A stretch of 64,000 nt of DNA, from assembly GCA_021824285.1 (NCBI GenBank), contig JAKAKZ010000003.1, positions 571 to 64,570 on the forward strand. The letters are read 5' to 3'. The position numbers were made by a program, and so were the translations under genes. This document shows, in pieces, positions 4,324 through 12,693 of this stretch. Origin of the DNA: a bacterium. GTDB taxonomy: Bacteria; Patescibacteriota; Patescibacteriia; SG8-24. Each line of letters begins with the position of its first letter. Position 1 is the stretch's first letter. A model generated the notes under the pieces. It was not told the DNA's origin. It saw only the letters and a list, made by a program, of their open reading frames with translations, and made no database searches.

Positions 4324-5208
4324 ATGAGCTGGCTCGAAATCCTGCGCCTTCGGGCGGTCCGCCGCAAGTTTCTGATGAACGGCGCCATGATCGCCCTGCA
4401 CTTGGCCCTGGCAATCGGCCTGTACCTGCTCGCCTGGCCGACCAAGGGCTTGGGCACGGCCGCCCTGACGGGGTTCGCCGCCTTCTTTTTGCTCATCACC
4501 ATCCTGCAGGTGGTCGTGCCGCCGATGAGCATCATCCGCAAGGTCCAGCGCTGGCCGGTGACCAGGCGCGAGCTGTCGCCCATCTATTGGGACGCGGCGC
4601 AGCGGGCCGCCGAACGGCTCAACATTGATGTGCCCGGCCTCTTCGAGTTCGACATTCCCGGAGCGGCGGCCCTAAGCTGGGATTTCGCCTTGGCTCGGGG
4701 AATCGGCGTCGAACGCGCCCTCACGTCCGGCTCAATCGGCAGCCAACCGGTGCTCGAAGCCATCGTAGCGCACGAGTGCGCGCATCTGAAGACGTCCGAC
4801 ACCTCTTGGTCCTTGATCGCCCAGAACTGCGCCGGGCTGGCGTTTCTCTTCGCCGACTTCCTGGCTGCATTCGGAGCCGTTCGACTCGTCTTTTTCCACG
4901 GCGGGCTGCTGGAGTTCGTCTGGATCGGCTGCGGTTTTGCCGTCTTCCTGTACCGGCGCCTCCTGTATTGGCGCCTGTGGATGCGGATGCTGCACCTGCA
5001 CGAGTTCTCTTGTGATGCTTTGGCCGCAGAAGTGATCGGCAGCCCCTCGCAAGCCGCCGCCGCCCTACTGCTCCTGGAGCTGCGGGCGGAGAACATCCGC
5101 CTCATGCGGCGGATGGCCGGCCTAGAGGCTCCGGAGCCGGAAGGGAGGGTCTTCCGAACCCATCCACCGGTCGAGGAGCGCGTGGCCGCGCTGCTCGCCA
5201 AACGCTGA
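4324..5208 (+). CDS. membrane zinc metalloprotease-like protein (HExxH; M48/M56-like)
   Basis: N-terminal TM helices and a VAHECAHL (HExxH) motif, with further hydrophobic segments. Family assignment is tentative. Confidence 0.5.
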   Translation: MSWLEILRLRAVRRKFLMNGAMIALHLALAIGLYLLAWPTKGLGTAALTGFAAFFLLITILQVVVPPMSIIRKVQRWPVTRRELSPIYWDAAQRAAERLNIDVPGLFEFDIPGAAALSWDFALARGIGVERALTSGSIGSQPVLEAIVAHECAHLKTSDTSWSLIAQNCAGLAFLFADFLAAFGAVRLVFFHGGLLEFVWIGCGFAVFLYRRLLYWRLWMRMLHLHEFSCDALAAEVIGSPSQAAAALLLLELRAENIRLMRRMAGLEAPEPEGRVFRTHPPVEERVAALLAKR

Positions 5209-5236
5209 CCGGTCCGTTCTGGGCCGGTTTTTTGCT
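5208..5236 (+). terminator. terminator of the 4324-5208 gene
   Basis: gaccggtccgttctgggccggtttttt: a hairpin followed by a T6 run. Confidence 0.6.
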
Positions 5237-5244
5237 TTTGGCGG

Positions 5245-5273
5245 CGGACAAAAAAGACCGCGCGTGGCGGTCT
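5245..5273 (-). terminator. terminator of the minus-strand gene 5284-5607
   Basis: On the minus strand this reads agaccgccacgcgcggtcttttttgtc: a 7-bp GC stem followed by a T-run. Confidence 0.6.
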
Positions 5274-5283
5274 AACTAAGTCT

Positions 5284-5607
5284 TCAGCATTCGTCGATCG
5301 GCTTGAGCGCGAGCACCCGCTCGCAGAGGTCGAGGAACATGACCTGCGTCCGGTTGGTACCGAACCCGTCCTTGACCGTGCCGCGGATGTCCGGGTGCTG
5401 GTAGGCCAAGCAGTCGCGGAAGTGGACTTCCAGCACGCCCAAGACCTCCTCGGACTTGCCTTGGTCCGCGGCGTGCATCAGGACGTTGGTGACGTCGTAG
5501 GACAGCTGCGGGCCGTAGTTGCGGAAGACGGTCAGGCCGCGCTCCCAGTGGGCGAGCAGGCGGTTGCAGACCAGCTCCTCAAAAAGCTGTTCGTTGATTT
5601 CGTGCAT
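5284..5607 (-). CDS. hypothetical small protein (107 aa)
   Basis: Clean ORF with a GGAGG RBS upstream and terminators on both sides. No family recognised. Confidence 0.45.
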   Translation of the reverse strand: MHEINEQLFEELVCNRLLAHWERGLTVFRNYGPQLSYDVTNVLMHAADQGKSEEVLGVLEVHFRDCLAYQHPDIRGTVKDGFGTNRTQVMFLDLCERVLALKPIDEC

Positions 5608-5686
5608 GACCCTACCTCCAAGGTACGGTTAGTTGGTCAGTGGCTCCAACTATCTCGCGTCTTATCAGGATGTAGGCCGGCCGTCA

Positions 5687-5730
5687 ATCGGCAAAAGAAA
5701 TCGCCCCACCCCTATGGGGTGAGGCGATTT
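5687..5730 (-). terminator. long hairpin terminator on minus strand
   Basis: aaatcgcc-ccacccctatggggtg-aggcgattt has a ~14-bp stem. On the minus strand it is followed by ttcttttgcc. Confidence 0.5.
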
Positions 5731-5732
5731 CT

Positions 5733-5790
5733 CTGGCGGGTCCCTCCGTTCGCGAACGGAGGGACGTGTCCGAAGGGATTCCTCCTCACC
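5733..5790 (-). other. rearranged tRNA-Asp-derived fragment
   Basis: ctggcgggtcc + palindromic ctccgttcgcgaacggagggacgtgt + ccgaagggattc. The outer parts match the tRNA-Asp 3' acceptor and T-arm. The insert resembles its anticodon arm (ctccgtgacagggagacgtgt). Confidence 0.4.
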
Positions 5791-5903
5791 CGCGCTCGCT
5801 CGGTGCTGTTGCCCGCGCTCGCGCTCCTTCGGAGCCCGCCGCTCCTCGGACGGCCATACTAGGCAGTCCTCGGAGTCGGCTTCGAATCCCTTCGATACCC
5901 GCG

Positions 5904-5947
5904 CGTCAAAACAAAGACGCCCCGCCACAAGGGCGGAGCGTCTTTGT
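5904..5947 (-). terminator. terminator immediately 3' of tRNA-Asp
   Basis: acaaagacgc-cccgccacaagggcgg-agcgtctttgt has a 10-bp stem. On the minus strand it is followed by a ttgttttg run. Confidence 0.55.
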
Positions 5948-5949
5948 TC

Positions 5950-6027
5950 TGGCGGGTCCGAAGGGATTCGAACCCTCGGTCTTCTCCGTGACAGGGAGAC
6001 GTGTTAACCGGGCTACACCACGGACCC
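5950..6027 (-). tRNA. tRNA-Asp (anticodon GTC), CCA encoded
   Basis: Reverse complement GGGTCCGTGGTGTAGCCCGGTTAACACGTCTCCCTGTCACGGAGAAGACCGAGGGTTCGAATCCCTTCGGACCCGCCA. A full cloverleaf can be drawn: 7-bp acceptor, D-stem GTGT/ACAC, anticodon stem TCTCC/GGAGA with loop CTGTCAC, T-stem GAGGG/CCCTT. Confidence 0.9.
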
Positions 6028-6270
6028 ACGCTTTGCTATAAGCCAGTCGATATAACTTTTCCGTTTCTTTTGTTTGATGTCGTATTCTCGTCTTTTTGCC
6101 TCTTGCGACGAGGGGAAGATCTCCGTGTAGACCAGTTCCCATGGACCCCTTCCTCTAGTGGCAAGACTTCTTTCCGAATTGTGCTCAAGCAATCTTCGGG
6201 TGATATTTTCGGTAACCCCGATATAATATCTGCCCTTACTGTTTTTTATTACGTAGAGGGTGGTAATCAT
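6013..6270 (-). CDS. GIY-YIG nuclease family protein (85 aa, stand-alone)
   Basis: YYIGVTENITRRLLEHN is a GIY-YIG motif. The gene body is strongly AT-rich compared with its surroundings. The last 5 codons overlap the 5' end of tRNA-Asp. Confidence 0.7.
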   Translation of the reverse strand: MITTLYVIKNSKGRYYIGVTENITRRLLEHNSERSLATRGRGPWELVYTEIFPSSQEAKRREYDIKQKKRKSYIDWLIAKRGSVV

Positions 6271-6338
6271 AAGTCCCGAACCCTCGGTCTGGCCGCAGTA
6301 CTGCGGCCCGTGTTAACCGGGCTACACCACGGACCCAC
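6271..6338 (-). other. truncated tRNA-like direct repeat (pseudo-tRNA)
   Basis: Repeats 29 nt of the acceptor-5'/D-arm (gtgttaaccgggctacaccacggacccac) and 13 nt of the T-arm region of tRNA-Asp. The anticodon region differs (palindrome ggccgcagtactgcggcc) and there is no 3' acceptor strand. Confidence 0.6.
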
Positions 6339-6461
6339 ACGTAAACTGCGCTTGGCCATTGTAGAGTAAGGTCAGAAAAATATCAAGCCCCCAGCGGGGC
6401 GGGTCTGGTTTCGGCTTGGCCGGTTGGCGATTGCTCTAATTGGTCCTTTTGGCTGGCGTAA

Positions 6462-6501
6462 GACATCAAAAGAAAATCCCCGACACCAAGCGGTGTCGGG
6501 G
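6462..6501 (-). terminator. terminator of gene 6509-7678
   Basis: ccccgacacc-aagc-ggtgtcgggg is a 10-bp stem. On the minus strand it is followed by attttcttttgatgtctta. Confidence 0.7.
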
Positions 6502-6508
6502 AAGAGGT

Positions 6509-7678
6509 TCATTTTTTCGGGAGGCAGCCGAACGTGACCGTGTTGCGGTCCGCAGAGACCCGGACGATCCGGTCGCAGACCAGCTCGCGCTGGACGGCGG
6601 CCGGCGCGGGTGCGGCAATCGAGGGTTGGCTCTGGAAGGCCAGCCGGGCCAGGCCGTACGCCGATTGGCGCATGCCCGCGCTCATGAGCCAGAACAGTCC
6701 GGCGATCATGACCGTGGCCGCCACGACGATGAGCGGCGCCAACCAGCGCGCCGGCCGCATGGACGGCGGCAGCGGTTCGGGCTTCTCGTCCTTGACCGCC
6801 GCGACCGTCTCGGTCGGTTCGTCCTCCTGAAAGAAGGACTCGGACTCGATGGTGTCGTTGTCCGGCACCGGCTGGCTGACGTCCGATTGCGGCAGGGCGT
6901 CCGGCGAAGGTGCCGCGGCGGGCGGCTCGGGCGGTTGGGGCGCGAGCGCCGTGTCGTCGGTCTTCGACATCTCCGTCGGCACCGGCACGGGATCGGTCTC
7001 GGTCACGGGCTCGGGCTGAACGTCCGGGTCCGTCATCGGAGCGGTCTCCGTTCCGGCCGACTCGGCCGTCGGGGCCTCCGGCTGATCCTGCTGGTCCATG
7101 GAGGACCGCATGATCCGGTCCGGAATCGTCGGCACGGGAGGAGGGAACTCCTCCGTGTCCGACAGATGCGCCGCGAGCACCGCGTCGATCTCATCCGGCA
7201 CGGCGGCCGTGATGACCGGCAGGGCAGGCTCGACCGAAGTGATGATTGGCGGCAGGGGCAGGCCATCGGGCTCGCCCGGCACGTCGATGACATCGGCGGG
7301 ATTGGCCATCGGCACGTCATCGTCGACGTCCGGATCGGCCGTGTCCTCGCTCGCGACCGGAATCACCTCGCCGCGGAACTTCGCGGTCAGGTGCCGGCCG
7401 TTCTTGTCCTTCACCGTGCAGGTGATCTCGTACGGTCCAGGCTGGTCGGCCAGGAGCAGGCAGCTCGACTGGGCCGTCGGCTCGTCGGAGTTCAGCCCGT
7501 GGATCGTCGTCTGGTCCTGGCTCACGTCGATGACGACGCTGCCGGAACGGACGTTCCATACCGTCTTGACGCCGTTGGCCACGTTGCCGTCATCGTCGCT
7601 GACCCGCAGCGCGAGCTCCTCGCTGAACTTGCCCGACATGATCTTCTGGCCGTCGCCGGCCATTTTCTTGATTTTCAT
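6509..7678 (-). CDS. hypothetical single-pass membrane protein with proline/acidic-rich linker
   Basis: Start at MKIKKMAGDG, 50 codons downstream of the ORF-track start. A soluble N-domain is followed by a P/E/D-rich low-complexity region and a C-terminal TM helix (WLAPLIVVAATVMIAGLFWLM). The Arg-rich ORF 6440-7762 on the opposite strand is an artefact. Confidence 0.6.
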   Translation of the reverse strand: MKIKKMAGDGQKIMSGKFSEELALRVSDDDGNVANGVKTVWNVRSGSVVIDVSQDQTTIHGLNSDEPTAQSSCLLLADQPGPYEITCTVKDKNGRHLTAKFRGEVIPVASEDTADPDVDDDVPMANPADVIDVPGEPDGLPLPPIITSVEPALPVITAAVPDEIDAVLAAHLSDTEEFPPPVPTIPDRIMRSSMDQQDQPEAPTAESAGTETAPMTDPDVQPEPVTETDPVPVPTEMSKTDDTALAPQPPEPPAAAPSPDALPQSDVSQPVPDNDTIESESFFQEDEPTETVAAVKDEKPEPLPPSMRPARWLAPLIVVAATVMIAGLFWLMSAGMRQSAYGLARLAFQSQPSIAAPAPAAVQRELVCDRIVRVSADRNTVTFGCLPKK

Positions 7679-7752
7679 CTTCAGCTCTCTTTCTGCAGTT
7701 CGTTGAAGGAAGGGCGTTCCCGCGGAATCGTGCGGGAACGCCGGCGGCCGGT

Positions 7753-8181
7753 CTACTTGTAGTCCACGAGCACCTGGCAGTCCCAGGTGACGCTCGTGCC
7801 CTTGACCCGCGCGTTCTTGAGCGTGCACTTCTGGAAGTCCACGCGCTTCGGGGTCGGAATGTTGACCAGCACCAGATCATGGTCGTCGGCTTCGGTGGGG
7901 GAAGAGGCAGCCGTCGGCTTGTCGGCCTTGGCGTGCTTCTTCGTTCCCTTCGCCGCATGGCTGGACTTCTTCTTGTCGACGTTCGGCGGAGCTGGCAGTT
8001 TGGCGTTGGCCGAACCGTCGGTTCCGTCTTCCGGCACGAGAGGCGCAAGCGCCTCAGAATCCGGGATGGCCACCTTGGTCGCGGTCTTGGTTTGGCCGCG
8101 AAAGCCGATGACGAGCACGACCGCGATGACGGCGAGAACGGCGAGGATGACGAGGAAGTACGGCTGCATCTTCTTGTCCAT
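7753..8181 (-). CDS. hypothetical membrane-anchored small protein
   Basis: N-terminal TM helix (YFLVILAVLAVIAVVLVIGF), a Lys/Ala-rich linker and two Cys residues. Likely co-transcribed with the 6509-7678 gene. Confidence 0.5.
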   Translation of the reverse strand: MDKKMQPYFLVILAVLAVIAVVLVIGFRGQTKTATKVAIPDSEALAPLVPEDGTDGSANAKLPAPPNVDKKKSSHAAKGTKKHAKADKPTAASSPTEADDHDLVLVNIPTPKRVDFQKCTLKNARVKGTSVTWDCQVLVDYK

Positions 8182-8310
8182 TTTTTGCCTCCACTTGTGA
8201 ATGTGCGTCTCCCTTGAGAAGGGCGTCCGAACATGGTTCGGAACCGGATAACTTAGCAGGTTTTTGCGGTTTTGTCAATAATGGCGCAAAGCCCAAGCAA
8301 GCCCATTTCA

Positions 8311-8345
8311 GACGAAAACCAAAACCGCCCCGAATGCGGGGCGGT
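8311..8345 (-). terminator. terminator downstream of rplT
   Basis: ccgccccg-aat-gcggggcgg hairpin. On the minus strand it is followed by ttttggttttcg. Confidence 0.7.
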
Positions 8346-8361
8346 TCAGCTGGTTTCTGGC

Positions 8362-8709
8362 TTATTTCTTCGCCATGCCCACGACCGCTTTGAAGGCGGC
8401 GGGGTACTGGTTGGCGAGCAGCGAGAGCACCTTGCGGTCAATCGTCACATTGGCCTTCTTGAGAGCGCCGATGAGCTTGGAGTAGCTCCAGCCGTTCTCG
8501 CGGGCCGCGGCGTTGATGCGCAGCTGCCAGAGGGCGCGCATATCGCGCTTCTTCAGGCGGCGGTCGCGGTAGGCGTTCTTGCCGGCCTTGAGGATGGCGA
8601 TACGCATGAGCTTCATCTTGCTCTTGCGACCCCACATGTAGCCCTTGGTTTGGGCCTTCAGGTTGCGACGGACTTTGGCATGGATTGTTCCGCGTTTGAC
8701 ACGAGGCAT
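8362..8709 (-). CDS. rplT: 50S ribosomal protein L20
   Basis: MPRVKRGTIHAKVRRNLKAQTKGYMWGRK... is canonical L20. Start at the ATG at 8709, not the ORF-track start at 8805. Confidence 0.9.
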   Translation of the reverse strand: MPRVKRGTIHAKVRRNLKAQTKGYMWGRKSKMKLMRIAILKAGKNAYRDRRLKKRDMRALWQLRINAAARENGWSYSKLIGALKKANVTIDRKVLSLLANQYPAAFKAVVGMAKK

Positions 8710-8826
8710 ACTGGTGGGAGTTTGTAGTGTGAAGTGTGGAGTGTGAAGCGGCGGTGGTGGGGAGTTATTGAGCGTGGAGTTTGGGCTCCAAACTTCACGC
8801 TCCACGCTCCACGCTTCCGATAGGCT
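8710..8826 (-). promoter_or_regulatory. structured 117-nt leader between rpmI and rplT (possible L20 autoregulatory site)
   Basis: Unusually long rpmI-rplT spacer containing a hairpin (gcgtggagtttgg/ccaaacttcacgc) and GTGTGAAG/TGTGGAG tandem motifs. Confidence 0.3.
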
Positions 8827-9012
8827 TTACGCCTGGACCAGCTTCTTAATGGTCTTGGTGAAAGTCTCCGACATCTGGCGGTCGCGGCGCTTATTGCGGG
8901 TGACCTTACCGGATTCGCGGGAATTGAAATGGTCCTGGCCGGCGGCGCGCTTGAGCACCTTGCCCGACTTGGTGATCTTGAAACGCTTAGAAATGGCTTT
9001 GTGGGTCTTCAT
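8827..9012 (-). CDS. rpmI: 50S ribosomal protein L35
   Basis: MKTHKAISKRFKITKSGKVLKRAAGQDHFNS... is typical L35, 61 aa. Confidence 0.85.
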   Translation of the reverse strand: MKTHKAISKRFKITKSGKVLKRAAGQDHFNSRESGKVTRNKRRDRQMSETFTKTIKKLVQA

Positions 9013-9049
9013 ACTTGCTATATAGGCCGGGCAACCCGGTTCGGGGATA

Positions 9050-9598
9050 TTATGCCTTTCCGATGATGCTTGTCAACTGTCCGCCCATCCAGGTGATTGG
9101 CTGTTCGACCTTAACCGGCATGGTCTGGTTGACGTTGGCGATGAATTCGTTGATGACCTGGCGGGCGAGGTCGCCGTGCCGCTTTTCGCGGCCGCGCAGG
9201 ATGATCTCCACCTTGACCTTATCGCCGTCATCAAGGAACTTCATCGCCTGGTTTTTGCGCACCTCGATGTCGTGCGGGCCGATGCGGAGCGAGAGGCGGA
9301 CGCCCTTCACCTCCACGGACTTCTGGGAAGCCTTCTGCTTGCGCGCGGCCTTATCCTGCTCGAACTTCCATTTGCCGAACTCCACCATCTTGGCGAGCAT
9401 CGGTTCGGCCTTGGGTTGGATCACGACGAGGTCGAGGTCCTTCTCCATGGCGCGCTGGAGCGCTTCCTGGGTCGGAATCACACCCACATGCTCGCCGTTC
9501 TCGTCAAGCAGACGGACGGTGGCGGCCCGGATGTTTTCGTTCACCAGGTAGATGACGCGTACCGGCTTTGGTTTGAAGCGGCGGCGGGAGATGCGCAA
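9050..9598 (-). CDS. infC: translation initiation factor IF-3
   Basis: IRAATVRLLDENGEHVGVIPTQEAL...EVKGVRLSLRIGPHDIEVRK is a clear IF3 match. The true start is uncertain because IF3 commonly uses a non-ATG start; the region LRISRRRFKPKP is the likely N-terminus. Confidence 0.8.
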   Translation of the reverse strand: MRISRRRFKPKPVRVIYLVNENIRAATVRLLDENGEHVGVIPTQEALQRAMEKDLDLVVIQPKAEPMLAKMVEFGKWKFEQDKAARKQKASQKSVEVKGVRLSLRIGPHDIEVRKNQAMKFLDDGDKVKVEIILRGREKRHGDLARQVINEFIANVNQTMPVKVEQPITWMGGQLTSIIGKA

Positions 9599-12296: not shown

Positions 12297-12693
12297 GGGG
12301 ATGCCAGGCATCGACGGGGGATCTTTTCACGCCACGCAAGCCGAGCATGTCCGACGTCTCGTTAAACCGCGGACGAATGATCAAGTGCCAACTTGCTCAA
12401 TCGGGTGAAGAACGCGGTGGCCAACGCCTTCGCGCCTTCATTCGCTCCGGCTTTCGCCTAAGCGCGTAAGCCCATCCGTCCGGCCGATGTCCGATAGGTC
12501 GGGTGCGGGTGTCATTTTTCGGACAGAGCCGCGGCGTTTCTCCTGCGCCGGGGCCGACTCATGGCAGGGGATAGGGAAGCCGGATTTCGGCCGATTACCA
12601 CCGGATTCCCGAAATACCTGAACCGGCCTACGCTTGTACACGTGTCGTGAACCGGCCCACCGGACGGGAGTTCGATTCTCCCCATCTCCACCA
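12297..12693 (+). ncRNA. ssrA: tmRNA (ssrA), standard one-piece
   Basis: 5' GGGGATG pairs with 3' CATCTCC before ACCA, including the G3-U pair. The 3' end GGACGGGAGTTCGATTCTCCCCATCTCCACCA is a tRNA-like T-arm. An in-frame tag reading frame ends ...ANAFAPSFAPAFA-TAA. The gene is adjacent to smpB. Confidence 0.85.

Follow-up and report, generated by a model that had tools for sequence, protein, structure and literature searches.

The T4 enzyme SegB, a GIY-YIG nuclease encoded among the transfer RNA (tRNA) genes of the phage, takes the T-arm motif GGTTCRANTCC as its recognition sequence and cleaves at the 3′ ends of tRNAs (PMC2330249). The gene is co-transcribed with the tRNAs, processing of the next tRNA by RNase P cuts the message before the stop codon, and no self-immunity operates, low expression having been proposed instead (PMC2330249). 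The breaks made by SegB, followed by homologous recombination through tRNA-related microhomology, were found to produce tandem tRNA-segB amplification (PMC13096335). The locus described here lies in a 64,000-nucleotide stretch of contig JAKAKZ010000003.1 (assembly GCA_021824285.1) from a bacterium of the Patescibacteriota, hereafter the window. It consists of a gene for a GIY-YIG protein of 85 amino acids (aa) placed between an intact tRNA-Asp gene and a partial copy of that tRNA in which a hairpin has replaced the anticodon arm. Comparison with relatives demonstrated that the gene and the partial copy form an insertion of 309 bp, and the same three-part module recurs across several phyla.

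Three other described systems are relevant. The 2006 survey of GIY-YIG proteins regarded members of the SLX1-like/UPF0213 family as putative repair enzymes that are inherited vertically and whose function is not known, and linkage to tRNA genes or mobility is not mentioned there for this family (PMC1564403). Islands and prophages of the integrase type also land at tRNA and transfer-messenger RNA (tmRNA) genes; they carry a tyrosine or serine recombinase, and the 3′ part of the target is duplicated as the attachment (att) site in such a way that a working gene is left. In the Candidate Phyla Radiation, homing-endonuclease open reading frames (ORFs), mostly of the LAGLIDADG type, were reportedly found in 2015 in introns and insertions of ribosomal RNA (rRNA) genes.

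All coordinates are those of the window, and the locus is read on the minus strand from 6386 to 5691. In this direction, the sigma70-like promoter of the tRNA-Asp unit (TTGATA-17-TACAAT, 6386..6358), which the initial annotation does not list, is now directly upstream of the partial tRNA copy (6271..6338), which is followed by the ORF (6013..6270), the intact tRNA-Asp(GTC) gene (5950-6027), a terminator hairpin (5904..5954) whose 5′ arm starts in the final tRNA bases (5950-5954), about 110 nucleotides (nt) of GC-rich sequence, a copy of the tRNA 3′ end and a second terminator hairpin (5691..5737). ARAGORN called tRNA-Asp(GTC) as the single tRNA of the 64 kb, with 67 bits against the Rfam tRNA model. 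The pieces listed in the initial annotation of this DNA, namely the tRNA, the AT-rich 85-aa ORF overlapping it by 15 nt, a tRNA repeat devoid of the 3′ acceptor strand and a third tRNA fragment, were all found where it had placed them. An independent assembly from the European Nucleotide Archive (ENA; contig L001) is the same as the window over 5590-9088 except for one base, 5744, and since the whole region is thus reproduced, the locus is not an assembly error.

The partial copy, or 5′ pseudo-tRNA, starts with GT, the acceptor 5′ strand, the D arm and G26 (6338-6309), continues with the hairpin that replaces the anticodon arm (6308-6291) and with the variable region, the 5′ strand of the T stem and TTCG (6290-6277), and ends in a 6-nt linker (6276-6271). 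Both tRNA-derived segments are 100% identical to the intact gene (6309-6338 to 6000-6029 over 30 nt; 6277-6290 to 5969-5982 over 14 nt). The hairpin is an 18-nt perfect palindrome, GGCCGCAGTACTGCGGCC (6291-6308), with a 7-bp stem and a predicted stability of -12.8 kcal/mol, and stands for an anticodon arm of 17 nt. The 3′ strands of the acceptor and of the T stem are absent, and the segment escaped both ARAGORN and the Rfam tRNA model, the latter searched up to an E of 10. A functional second tRNA at 6271-6338, which the initial annotation had envisaged in case of a sequence error, was rejected: the segment has no 3′ acceptor or T strand, its hairpin loop counts 4-6 nt and the independent assembly has the same sequence. 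A group I intron in tRNA-Asp was likewise discarded, the tRNA being uninterrupted; searches with Rfam to E 10 over 5200-6900 returned no family for any intron, for the partial copy or for the structured sequence downstream of the tRNA.

The decisive comparison was provided by loci with exactly the same tRNA. A metagenome scan with the exact tRNA-Asp sequence yielded six loci; L048 is on the contig of the occupied locus L003, and the other five (L044, L045, L046, L047 and L049) are empty, consisting of promoter, short leader and tRNA with neither ORF nor hairpin copy. The tRNA-Asp sequence is identical in the window, L002, L003 and L044-L049, and the module is therefore polymorphic for presence and absence at an identical tRNA, with three occupied loci (window, L002, L003 = L048) against five empty ones. 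The syntenic loci L045, L046 and L049 have the upstream gene end, terminator and promoter of the window, the promoter standing at the matching distance from the true tRNA 5′ end, and the partial copy of the window occupies the exact place of the tRNA 5′ end in these empty alleles. The inserted block of 309 bp, between the tRNA promoter and the tRNA, comprises a copy of tRNA-Asp positions -2 to ~57 together with the ORF; the 30-nt repeat leaves its end points ambiguous within that length. An insertion next to tRNA-Asp, as the initial annotation had proposed, is thus real.

The nearest homologues of the protein, at 60-80% identity, are found in genome bins of Patescibacteria. In L002 and L003 the ORF is beside tRNA-Asp in the neighbourhood of the window (ribosomal proteins L20 and L35 and initiation factor IF3, together with phosphoenolpyruvate (PEP) synthase in L002), L004 keeps PEP synthase on one side, and in L007 the ORF lies at tRNA-Asp among other genes. 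Hairpin copies are present in 5/5 occupied and 0/5 empty loci of this clade. Judging from PEP synthase, whose identity to that of the window is 74% in L045 and 71% in L002, the empty L045 is as close to the window as the occupied L002. L002 and L003 share the layout copy, ORF, second copy, spacer and tRNA, with more copies downstream in L003, and recombination of the tRNA with the second copy could convert it into the form seen in the window.

The partial copy is a conserved component of the cassette and not a decaying scar, as it had been read before. The same architecture is found in L002, L003, L004 and L007. The hairpin of L003 is identical to GGCCGCAGTACTGCGGCC, and that of L002 keeps the stem with a changed loop. 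In L004 and L007 the hairpin is CCCCGCAGTACTGCGGGG, which retains the loop and has GG and CC exchanged in a compensatory manner at the stem base; the acceptor stems of tRNA-Asp in these two loci differ from that of the window, and their partial copies match their own tRNA. Synonymous divergence (dS) between the ORFs of the window and L003 is ~1.1, and the hairpin must be constrained because an unconstrained 18-mer would not stay identical at such a distance. Persistence of the hairpin in relatives at an ORF dS above 1, together with compensatory changes in its stem, shows that it is clearly selected. The hairpin and the 26-nt palindrome described below are each single-copy in the window, so that neither is a dispersed repeat there of the kind of repetitive extragenic palindromic (REP) elements or miniature inverted-repeat transposable elements (MITEs). 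Folding of the 5′ leader as RNA gave unremarkable z-scores (-1.1 to -1.3), the hairpin being the one structure formed consistently.

The ORF is physically interlocked with the tRNA gene. Its stop codon, the TAG at 6015-6013, is inside the D arm of tRNA-Asp, and its final four codons and stop (GSVV*) are the 5′ end of the tRNA, an overlap of 15 nt. The RNase P site of the tRNA (6028/6027) falls between ORF codons 80 and 81. At the other end, the GAGGG of the T-stem 5′ strand in the partial copy (6281..6285), 10 nt before the ATG, is a candidate Shine-Dalgarno sequence, and GAGGG is found 5-11 nt ahead of the ATG in L007, L004, L003 and L002. In the predicted fold of the window GAGGG pairs with the start of the ORF, a pairing that is not conserved.

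The protein matches PF01541 with an E of 1.8e-16 and 60.6 bits (Pfam cutoff, 22.6); this domain, overlapped by T5orf172, is the sole match and covers residues 5-71. The catalytic residues Y6, Y16, R26 and H30 are invariant and the catalytic E62 is nearly invariant (at least 90%) among 36 sequences. The AlphaFold2 model has a predicted local distance difference test score (pLDDT) of 90.9 and consists of a single domain with the order beta-beta-alpha-beta-alpha-alpha. A profile search of the sequences in the PDB placed 1zg2 first (E 2.9e-19), followed by 1ywl (E 9e-11) and then SLX1. The best Foldseek matches were 1zg2, 6seh, 1ywl, 4xm5 and 7cq3 (template modelling (TM) score 0.65, root-mean-square deviation 1.8 Å), and I-TevI (1ln0) and UvrC (1yd6) matched at an E of about 1. 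The UPF0213 proteins BH0048 (1zg2) and EF2693 (1ywl), which have the same fold and size, are therefore the closest by both sequence and structure. Since these and the Slx1 nuclease domain are nearest and I-TevI and UvrC are marginal, the protein belongs to the bacterial SLX1-like/UPF0213 branch and not to the homing-endonuclease branch. The C-terminal NUMOD, helix-turn-helix (HTH) or zinc-finger DNA-binding domain that accompanies GIY-YIG in enzymes of the Seg and I-TevI type is missing from it. PADLOC, PHROGs and NCBIfam offered no informative family, and no PADLOC match to a defence system was convincing. There is no second GIY-YIG gene in the 64 kb, a weak tblastn match near 55 kb being spurious.

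The ORF is under strong purifying selection. Its ratio of nonsynonymous to synonymous divergence (dN/dS) is ~0.12-0.15, and in matching genome pairs its proportion of nonsynonymous differences (pN) is lower than those of L20 and PEP synthase. The GC content is 0.45, against 0.64 in the flanks, with local minima of 0.37. Recent horizontal transfer was considered as an origin of the ORF and found no support, its proportion of synonymous differences (pS) being at least that of housekeeping genes; the low GC content is thus not accounted for by recent transfer.

The association extends far beyond Patescibacteria of this clade. A scan of one genome per species retrieved 36 further loci, mostly from Acidobacteriota and also from Verrucomicrobiia, bins of the Eremiobacterota type, Nitrospirota, Bacteroidota and other Patescibacteria; the counts that follow refer to 39 non-redundant loci. 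A tRNA on the same strand lies within 150 nt in 30/39, which answers the question raised by the initial annotation of whether homologues are recurrently encoded next to tRNA genes, and a hairpin copy is beside the ORF in 27/39. The order found in the window is mirrored in about 30 other species, where it runs tRNA, ORF, hairpin copy. The intact tRNA is then mostly Val-GAC, otherwise Ala-GGC or Met; it is followed by a leader of 7-70 nt and an ORF of ~83 aa whose stop is the D-loop TAG of a partial tRNA copy spanning the D loop to CCA, again with a GC hairpin in place of the anticodon arm. TAG is the stop codon in 27 of the 39 loci and coincides with the D-loop TAG wherever a tRNA-like copy follows. 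The three-part module of nuclease ORF, anticodon-less tRNA copy and intact tRNA thus recurs across several phyla in two mirror orientations, which suggests a family of selfish nuclease cassettes aimed at tRNA genes that has not been described before. The literature searched, from which most subscription papers were excluded, contained no account of this arrangement, so that an earlier description is possible.

The true anticodon arm is retained in none of the partial copies. In 21 of 26 cases the hairpin that replaces it measures 17 or 18 nt, as a real anticodon arm does. The hairpins are about twice as stable as a real arm (median -11.6 versus -5.5 kcal/mol). In an alignment of 23 distinct copies, 99.2% of the stem cells were paired and three of the six pairs showed double changes. 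Shuffled alignments reached the observed value in 0/500 trials for four of the five measures and in 58/500 for the number of pairs with double changes. G-U pairs were absent from 132 hairpin cells. The base of the hairpin, GGCCG/CGGCC, is common to the window (Asp) and to Acidobacteriota (Val), suggesting that the hairpin is inherited together with the ORF while its flanks match the local tRNA. The copy in L027 arrived with its ORF, since its T stem and acceptor are unlike those of the adjacent tRNA-Val. One hairpin copy, at 1721-1797 of L029, was called tRNA-Pro(CGG) by ARAGORN, so hairpin copies can be mis-annotated as tRNA genes. At L015, L020, L024 and L043, the tRNA-Val beside the cassette, upstream of the ORF, is truncated and starts at the anticodon loop (TTGACAC...); such a truncation is the signature left at this tRNA by integrase-type islands.

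Tandem arrays are frequent; they were found in L016, L024, L025, L032 and L052. In L052 (Bacteroidota, on a 5.2-Mb contig; 290-1830), seven tandem units of 117 nt, each made of a leader and a 5′ part of tRNA-Ala with the hairpin and no ORF, precede the true tRNA-Ala, which is followed by a terminator and two identical units of ORF plus 3′ hairpin copy. Many Bacteroidota homologues are on contigs of 500-800 bp, as expected if repeats break assemblies, and tandem arrays appear to break short-read assemblies. A Kerfeldbacteria bin (L032, 1018-1870) holds an array with a period of 346 nt whose unit is a leader with the hairpin CCGCCCCGCATGATGCGGGGCGG, for comparison with CCCCGCAGTACTGCGGGG of L004, plus a GIY-YIG ORF; no tRNA homology is recognisable in this array. 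The carriers include two cultured bacteria, Algoriphagus marincola (GCA_000429405.1) and Draconibacterium mangrovi GM2-18.

Insertion is not confined to tRNA genes. Distant members of the family deal with other targets in a like manner. In Parcubacteria GW2011_GWA1_56_13 (L040, 1461-2340), the gene for RNase P RNA carries, within its P3 hairpin loop, a homologous 81-aa GIY-YIG ORF in the order CCCCGTGAGATAA-ORF-TTATCTCACGGGG-AGGAAAGTCCG, with a second copy of the P3 3′ strand 300 nt downstream. In a Planctomycetales bin (L041, 1420-1810), the ORF is at the 5′ end of a gene resembling NAD-dependent epimerases. The first 34 nt of that gene are duplicated and followed by their inverted complement, giving a hairpin of 15 bp. 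The duplicated start codon is in phase with the GIY ORF, which ends in a TGA that shares bases with the ATG of the intact epimerase-like gene (ATGA). At L048 (181-1233, minus strand), on the same contig as L003, the module downstream of a tmRNA gene repeats the T arm and 3′ end of that gene once inverted and once directly, and behind this module lies a 93-aa GIY-YIG paralogue, 37% identical to the window protein. The tmRNA gene of the window (12297-12693, plus strand; 126.7 bits in Rfam), which the ARAGORN scan of the window did not report, has no cassette or tRNA-end repeat after it.

The third fragment of the initial annotation (5733-5790) is indeed composed of rearranged tRNA pieces and a palindrome, but it does not belong to the GIY insertion. 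It contains the acceptor 3′ strand with CCA, a 26-nt palindrome and the 3′ part of the T arm. This 3′ tRNA-end copy, AATCCCTTCGGAC..CCGCCA (5733..5790, minus strand), closes a structured module (5791..5903, minus strand) that comprises an inverted T-arm piece, a GC-rich domain and a hairpin whose loop, CCUAGUAUGG, is conserved. The inverted piece (5878-5894, plus strand), which had not been noted before, pairs with the 3′ tRNA-end copy as the closing stem. A module of ~150 nt also follows the tRNA-Asp terminator in the empty loci L045 (3172-3312, minus strand) and L049 (1098-1242, plus strand). Across the three sequences, compensatory changes affect 17 of 39 predicted pairs and the loop CCUAGUAUGG of the inner hairpin is invariant. 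The module at 5733-5903 is thus separate from the GIY insertion and is a candidate small RNA or miniature tRNA-targeting element. The perfect palindrome, GTCCCTCCGTTCGCGAACGGAGGGAC (5740-5765), lies in the acceptor 3′ strand of the copy; it is missing from L045 and L049, which have the tRNA-end copy, and includes base 5744, the one that varies in the independent assembly. Pseudo-tRNA copies elsewhere are also split by comparable additional hairpins, in the T loop in L039 and in the variable loop and T stem in L060. The module behind the tmRNA gene of L048 is built on the same plan as the one at 5733-5903.

Compared with SegB of phages T4 and T6, the cassette shares a GIY-YIG gene embedded at a tRNA, an ORF end overlapping the next tRNA, an RNase P site before the stop and the occurrence of tandem arrays, which in the case of SegB arise nuclease-dependently. 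Co-transcription with the tRNA, a target at the tRNA T arm and 3′ end and the absence of self-immunity would be further points in common. The two also differ. SegB is a protein of 221 aa, against 85 aa here; it carries a NUMOD module for DNA binding and is a member of the I-TevI/UvrC branch, whereas the window protein is a catalytic domain alone from the SLX1/UPF0213 branch. Moreover, segB is a phage gene and the cassette sits in cellular chromosomes, and a hairpin-substituted partial tRNA copy is not described for SegB (PMC2330249; PMC13096335). The cassette therefore differs from the known free-standing nucleases of tRNA genes in enzyme branch, minimal size, cellular hosts and the anticodon-less tRNA copy. 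It resembles integrase-type islands in its landing at a stable-RNA gene and in a partial duplication that leaves a working gene; unlike them, it has no recombinase, a payload of 309 bp, a duplicated part that may be 5′ or 3′ and a hairpin in place of the anticodon arm. With the rRNA ORFs mentioned above it has in common a nuclease ORF in a stable-RNA gene of the same bacterial group, as in L040 with its ORF in the P3 loop, but no intron is involved here, and the RNA gene has been duplicated instead of split.

On the background of an observed insertion, conservation, tRNA linkage and selection, we lean, by a little, towards the interpretation that the locus is a small selfish nuclease cassette that colonised the tRNA-Asp gene while one working tRNA was kept. 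The ORF would have no promoter of its own and would be transcribed from the tRNA-Asp promoter within the tRNA precursor, and the unpaired GAGGG of the T stem would serve as its ribosome-binding site. The cut of RNase P at 6028/6027 would remove the last four codons and the stop, keeping expression low, as has been proposed for T4 segB. The nuclease would occasionally break tRNA genes, at or beside them; homologous repair against a cassette-bearing copy, with the pseudo-tRNA and the true tRNA as homology arms, would copy the cassette in and leave one working tRNA. Unequal recombination among the tRNA-derived repeats could then generate the tandem arrays. As for the hairpin, one possibility is that it disables the duplicated anticodon arm and interrupts homology, so that the cassette is lost more slowly; another is that it is a DNA structure recognised by this nuclease of the structure-specific type.

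Several points weigh against a selfish cassette. Cleavage by the nuclease, expression of the ORF and transfer of the cassette are inferred steps. Sequence-specific homing is hard to picture because the 85-aa protein has no DNA-binding domain, and self-immunity is not obvious because all tRNA sequences of the empty allele are still present in the intact tRNA. The pS of the ORF (0.59-0.82) is not below that of neighbouring housekeeping genes (0.45-0.53), so no sign of recent horizontal transfer is seen. Ribosomal protein L20 is under weaker constraint than the nuclease, and prolonged vertical retention under such strong selection is uncommon for a homing gene that is purely selfish. Homologues in phages and viral contigs are distant and not linked to tRNAs. 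Finally, a homing model leaves a stable hairpin of preserved length unaccounted for.

An alternative is that the module serves the host as a two-part system, in which nuclease and anticodon-less tRNA copy form a functional pair. The hairpin copy could be a decoy, a regulator, an antitoxin-like inhibitor or a recognition structure, as RNA or DNA, and the protein would act on tRNA or tRNA genes, for example in quality control, defence or recombination control. We regard this explanation as possible though rather unlikely. Purifying selection stronger than on L20, a hairpin identical in the window and L003 despite an ORF dS above 1 and the covariation of hairpin stems all fit it, as does a fusion of this GIY-YIG branch with a TrmH-like tRNA methyltransferase (PMC1564403). 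Among the loci, the layout of L052 alone, where seven ORF-less hairpin-copy units, a tRNA and a terminator precede the nuclease, recalls type III toxin-antitoxin systems (ToxIN), which likewise combine tandem structured RNA-like repeats, a terminator and a nuclease gene; in the window, however, the copy is single and no terminator precedes the ORF, toxins of the ToxN type are unrelated endoribonucleases, and the hairpin copy is not known to act as an antitoxin. Against a two-part system, the module is missing from equally close relatives with an identical tRNA, and no convincing defence match was obtained with PADLOC. In addition, no copy is tRNA-like over its full length, the 5′ copies having no 3′ strands and the 3′ copies no 5′ strand, and the absence of G-U from 132 cells together with some perfect palindromes fits DNA better than RNA.

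A bolder proposal, which we put forward as doubtful, makes the hairpin-substituted pseudo-tRNA the working partner of a minimal SLX1-type nuclease in a structure-guided, recombinase-free and hitherto unknown mode of insertion, amplification and maintenance of the cassette at stable-RNA genes. The enzyme might recognise an extruded hairpin or cruciform, or a folded RNA, flanked by tRNA-homologous arms; this too we hold to be unlikely. It is similarly doubtful that its targets are genes for tRNA, RNase P RNA and possibly tmRNA. A role of the hairpin at the DNA level, which would suit a structure-specific enzyme of the SLX1 type, is a conjecture favoured by the absence of G-U pairs and of RNA-type tetraloops and by the perfect palindromes.

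The remaining explanations fare much worse. The initial annotation had offered as its alternative a decayed tandem tRNA-Asp array that captured a homing-endonuclease-like gene. Tandem tRNA genes are common in bacteria and partial tRNA copies flank the tRNA on both sides, but relatives with the empty locus have only one tRNA-Asp after that promoter. The partial copy shows 100% identity to the tRNA everywhere except in the exchanged arm, its hairpin is conserved, and the design recurs with other tRNAs, with RNase P RNA and with a protein gene; the alternative is thus largely refuted, and we consider it very improbable. Least probable of all is the remnant of an integrase island (attL/attR) at tRNA-Asp that lost integrase and cargo: the att-like direct repeat of the tRNA 3′ end (T loop to CCA) that ends the downstream module and the exact truncation of several Acidobacteriota tRNA-Val loci at the anticodon loop would agree with it, but the repeat belongs to a module also present in ORF-less loci, and the GIY insertion duplicates the 5′ part of the tRNA (-2 to ~57), not the 3′ part, is 309 bp long with the nuclease ORF alone and has no integrase nearby. 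The initial annotation had remarked on the lack of an integrase, and ORF and Pfam searches revealed no integrase or recombinase gene within ~4 kb of the locus; the ORFs at 1.7-8.8 kb encode PEP synthase, an M48 peptidase, L20 and three unknowns, with no recombinase among them.

In conclusion, one clade of the widespread stand-alone SLX1-like (UPF0213) proteins is tied to a precise genomic behaviour: it inserts beside or inside stable-RNA genes, carries an anticodon-less copy of its target, uses the stop codon of the target and probably borrows its promoter and ribosome-binding site as well. To our knowledge, UPF0213 proteins have been without an assigned function for about 20 years. For genome annotation, the hairpin copies are open to being miscalled as tRNAs, as the false tRNA-Pro of L029 illustrates. 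If the cassette is mobile, no smaller self-contained nuclease element that targets the tRNA genes of cellular genomes would be known, and it would parallel in cells the SegB system of phages, which has recently been found to drive adaptive amplification of genes; the cultured carriers make this mobility testable. If the pseudo-tRNA is indeed the partner of the nuclease, this would give the large UPF0213 family its first function and define a new class of mobile elements, in which the target is recognised by nucleic-acid structure and homology and not by a DNA-binding domain of the protein.

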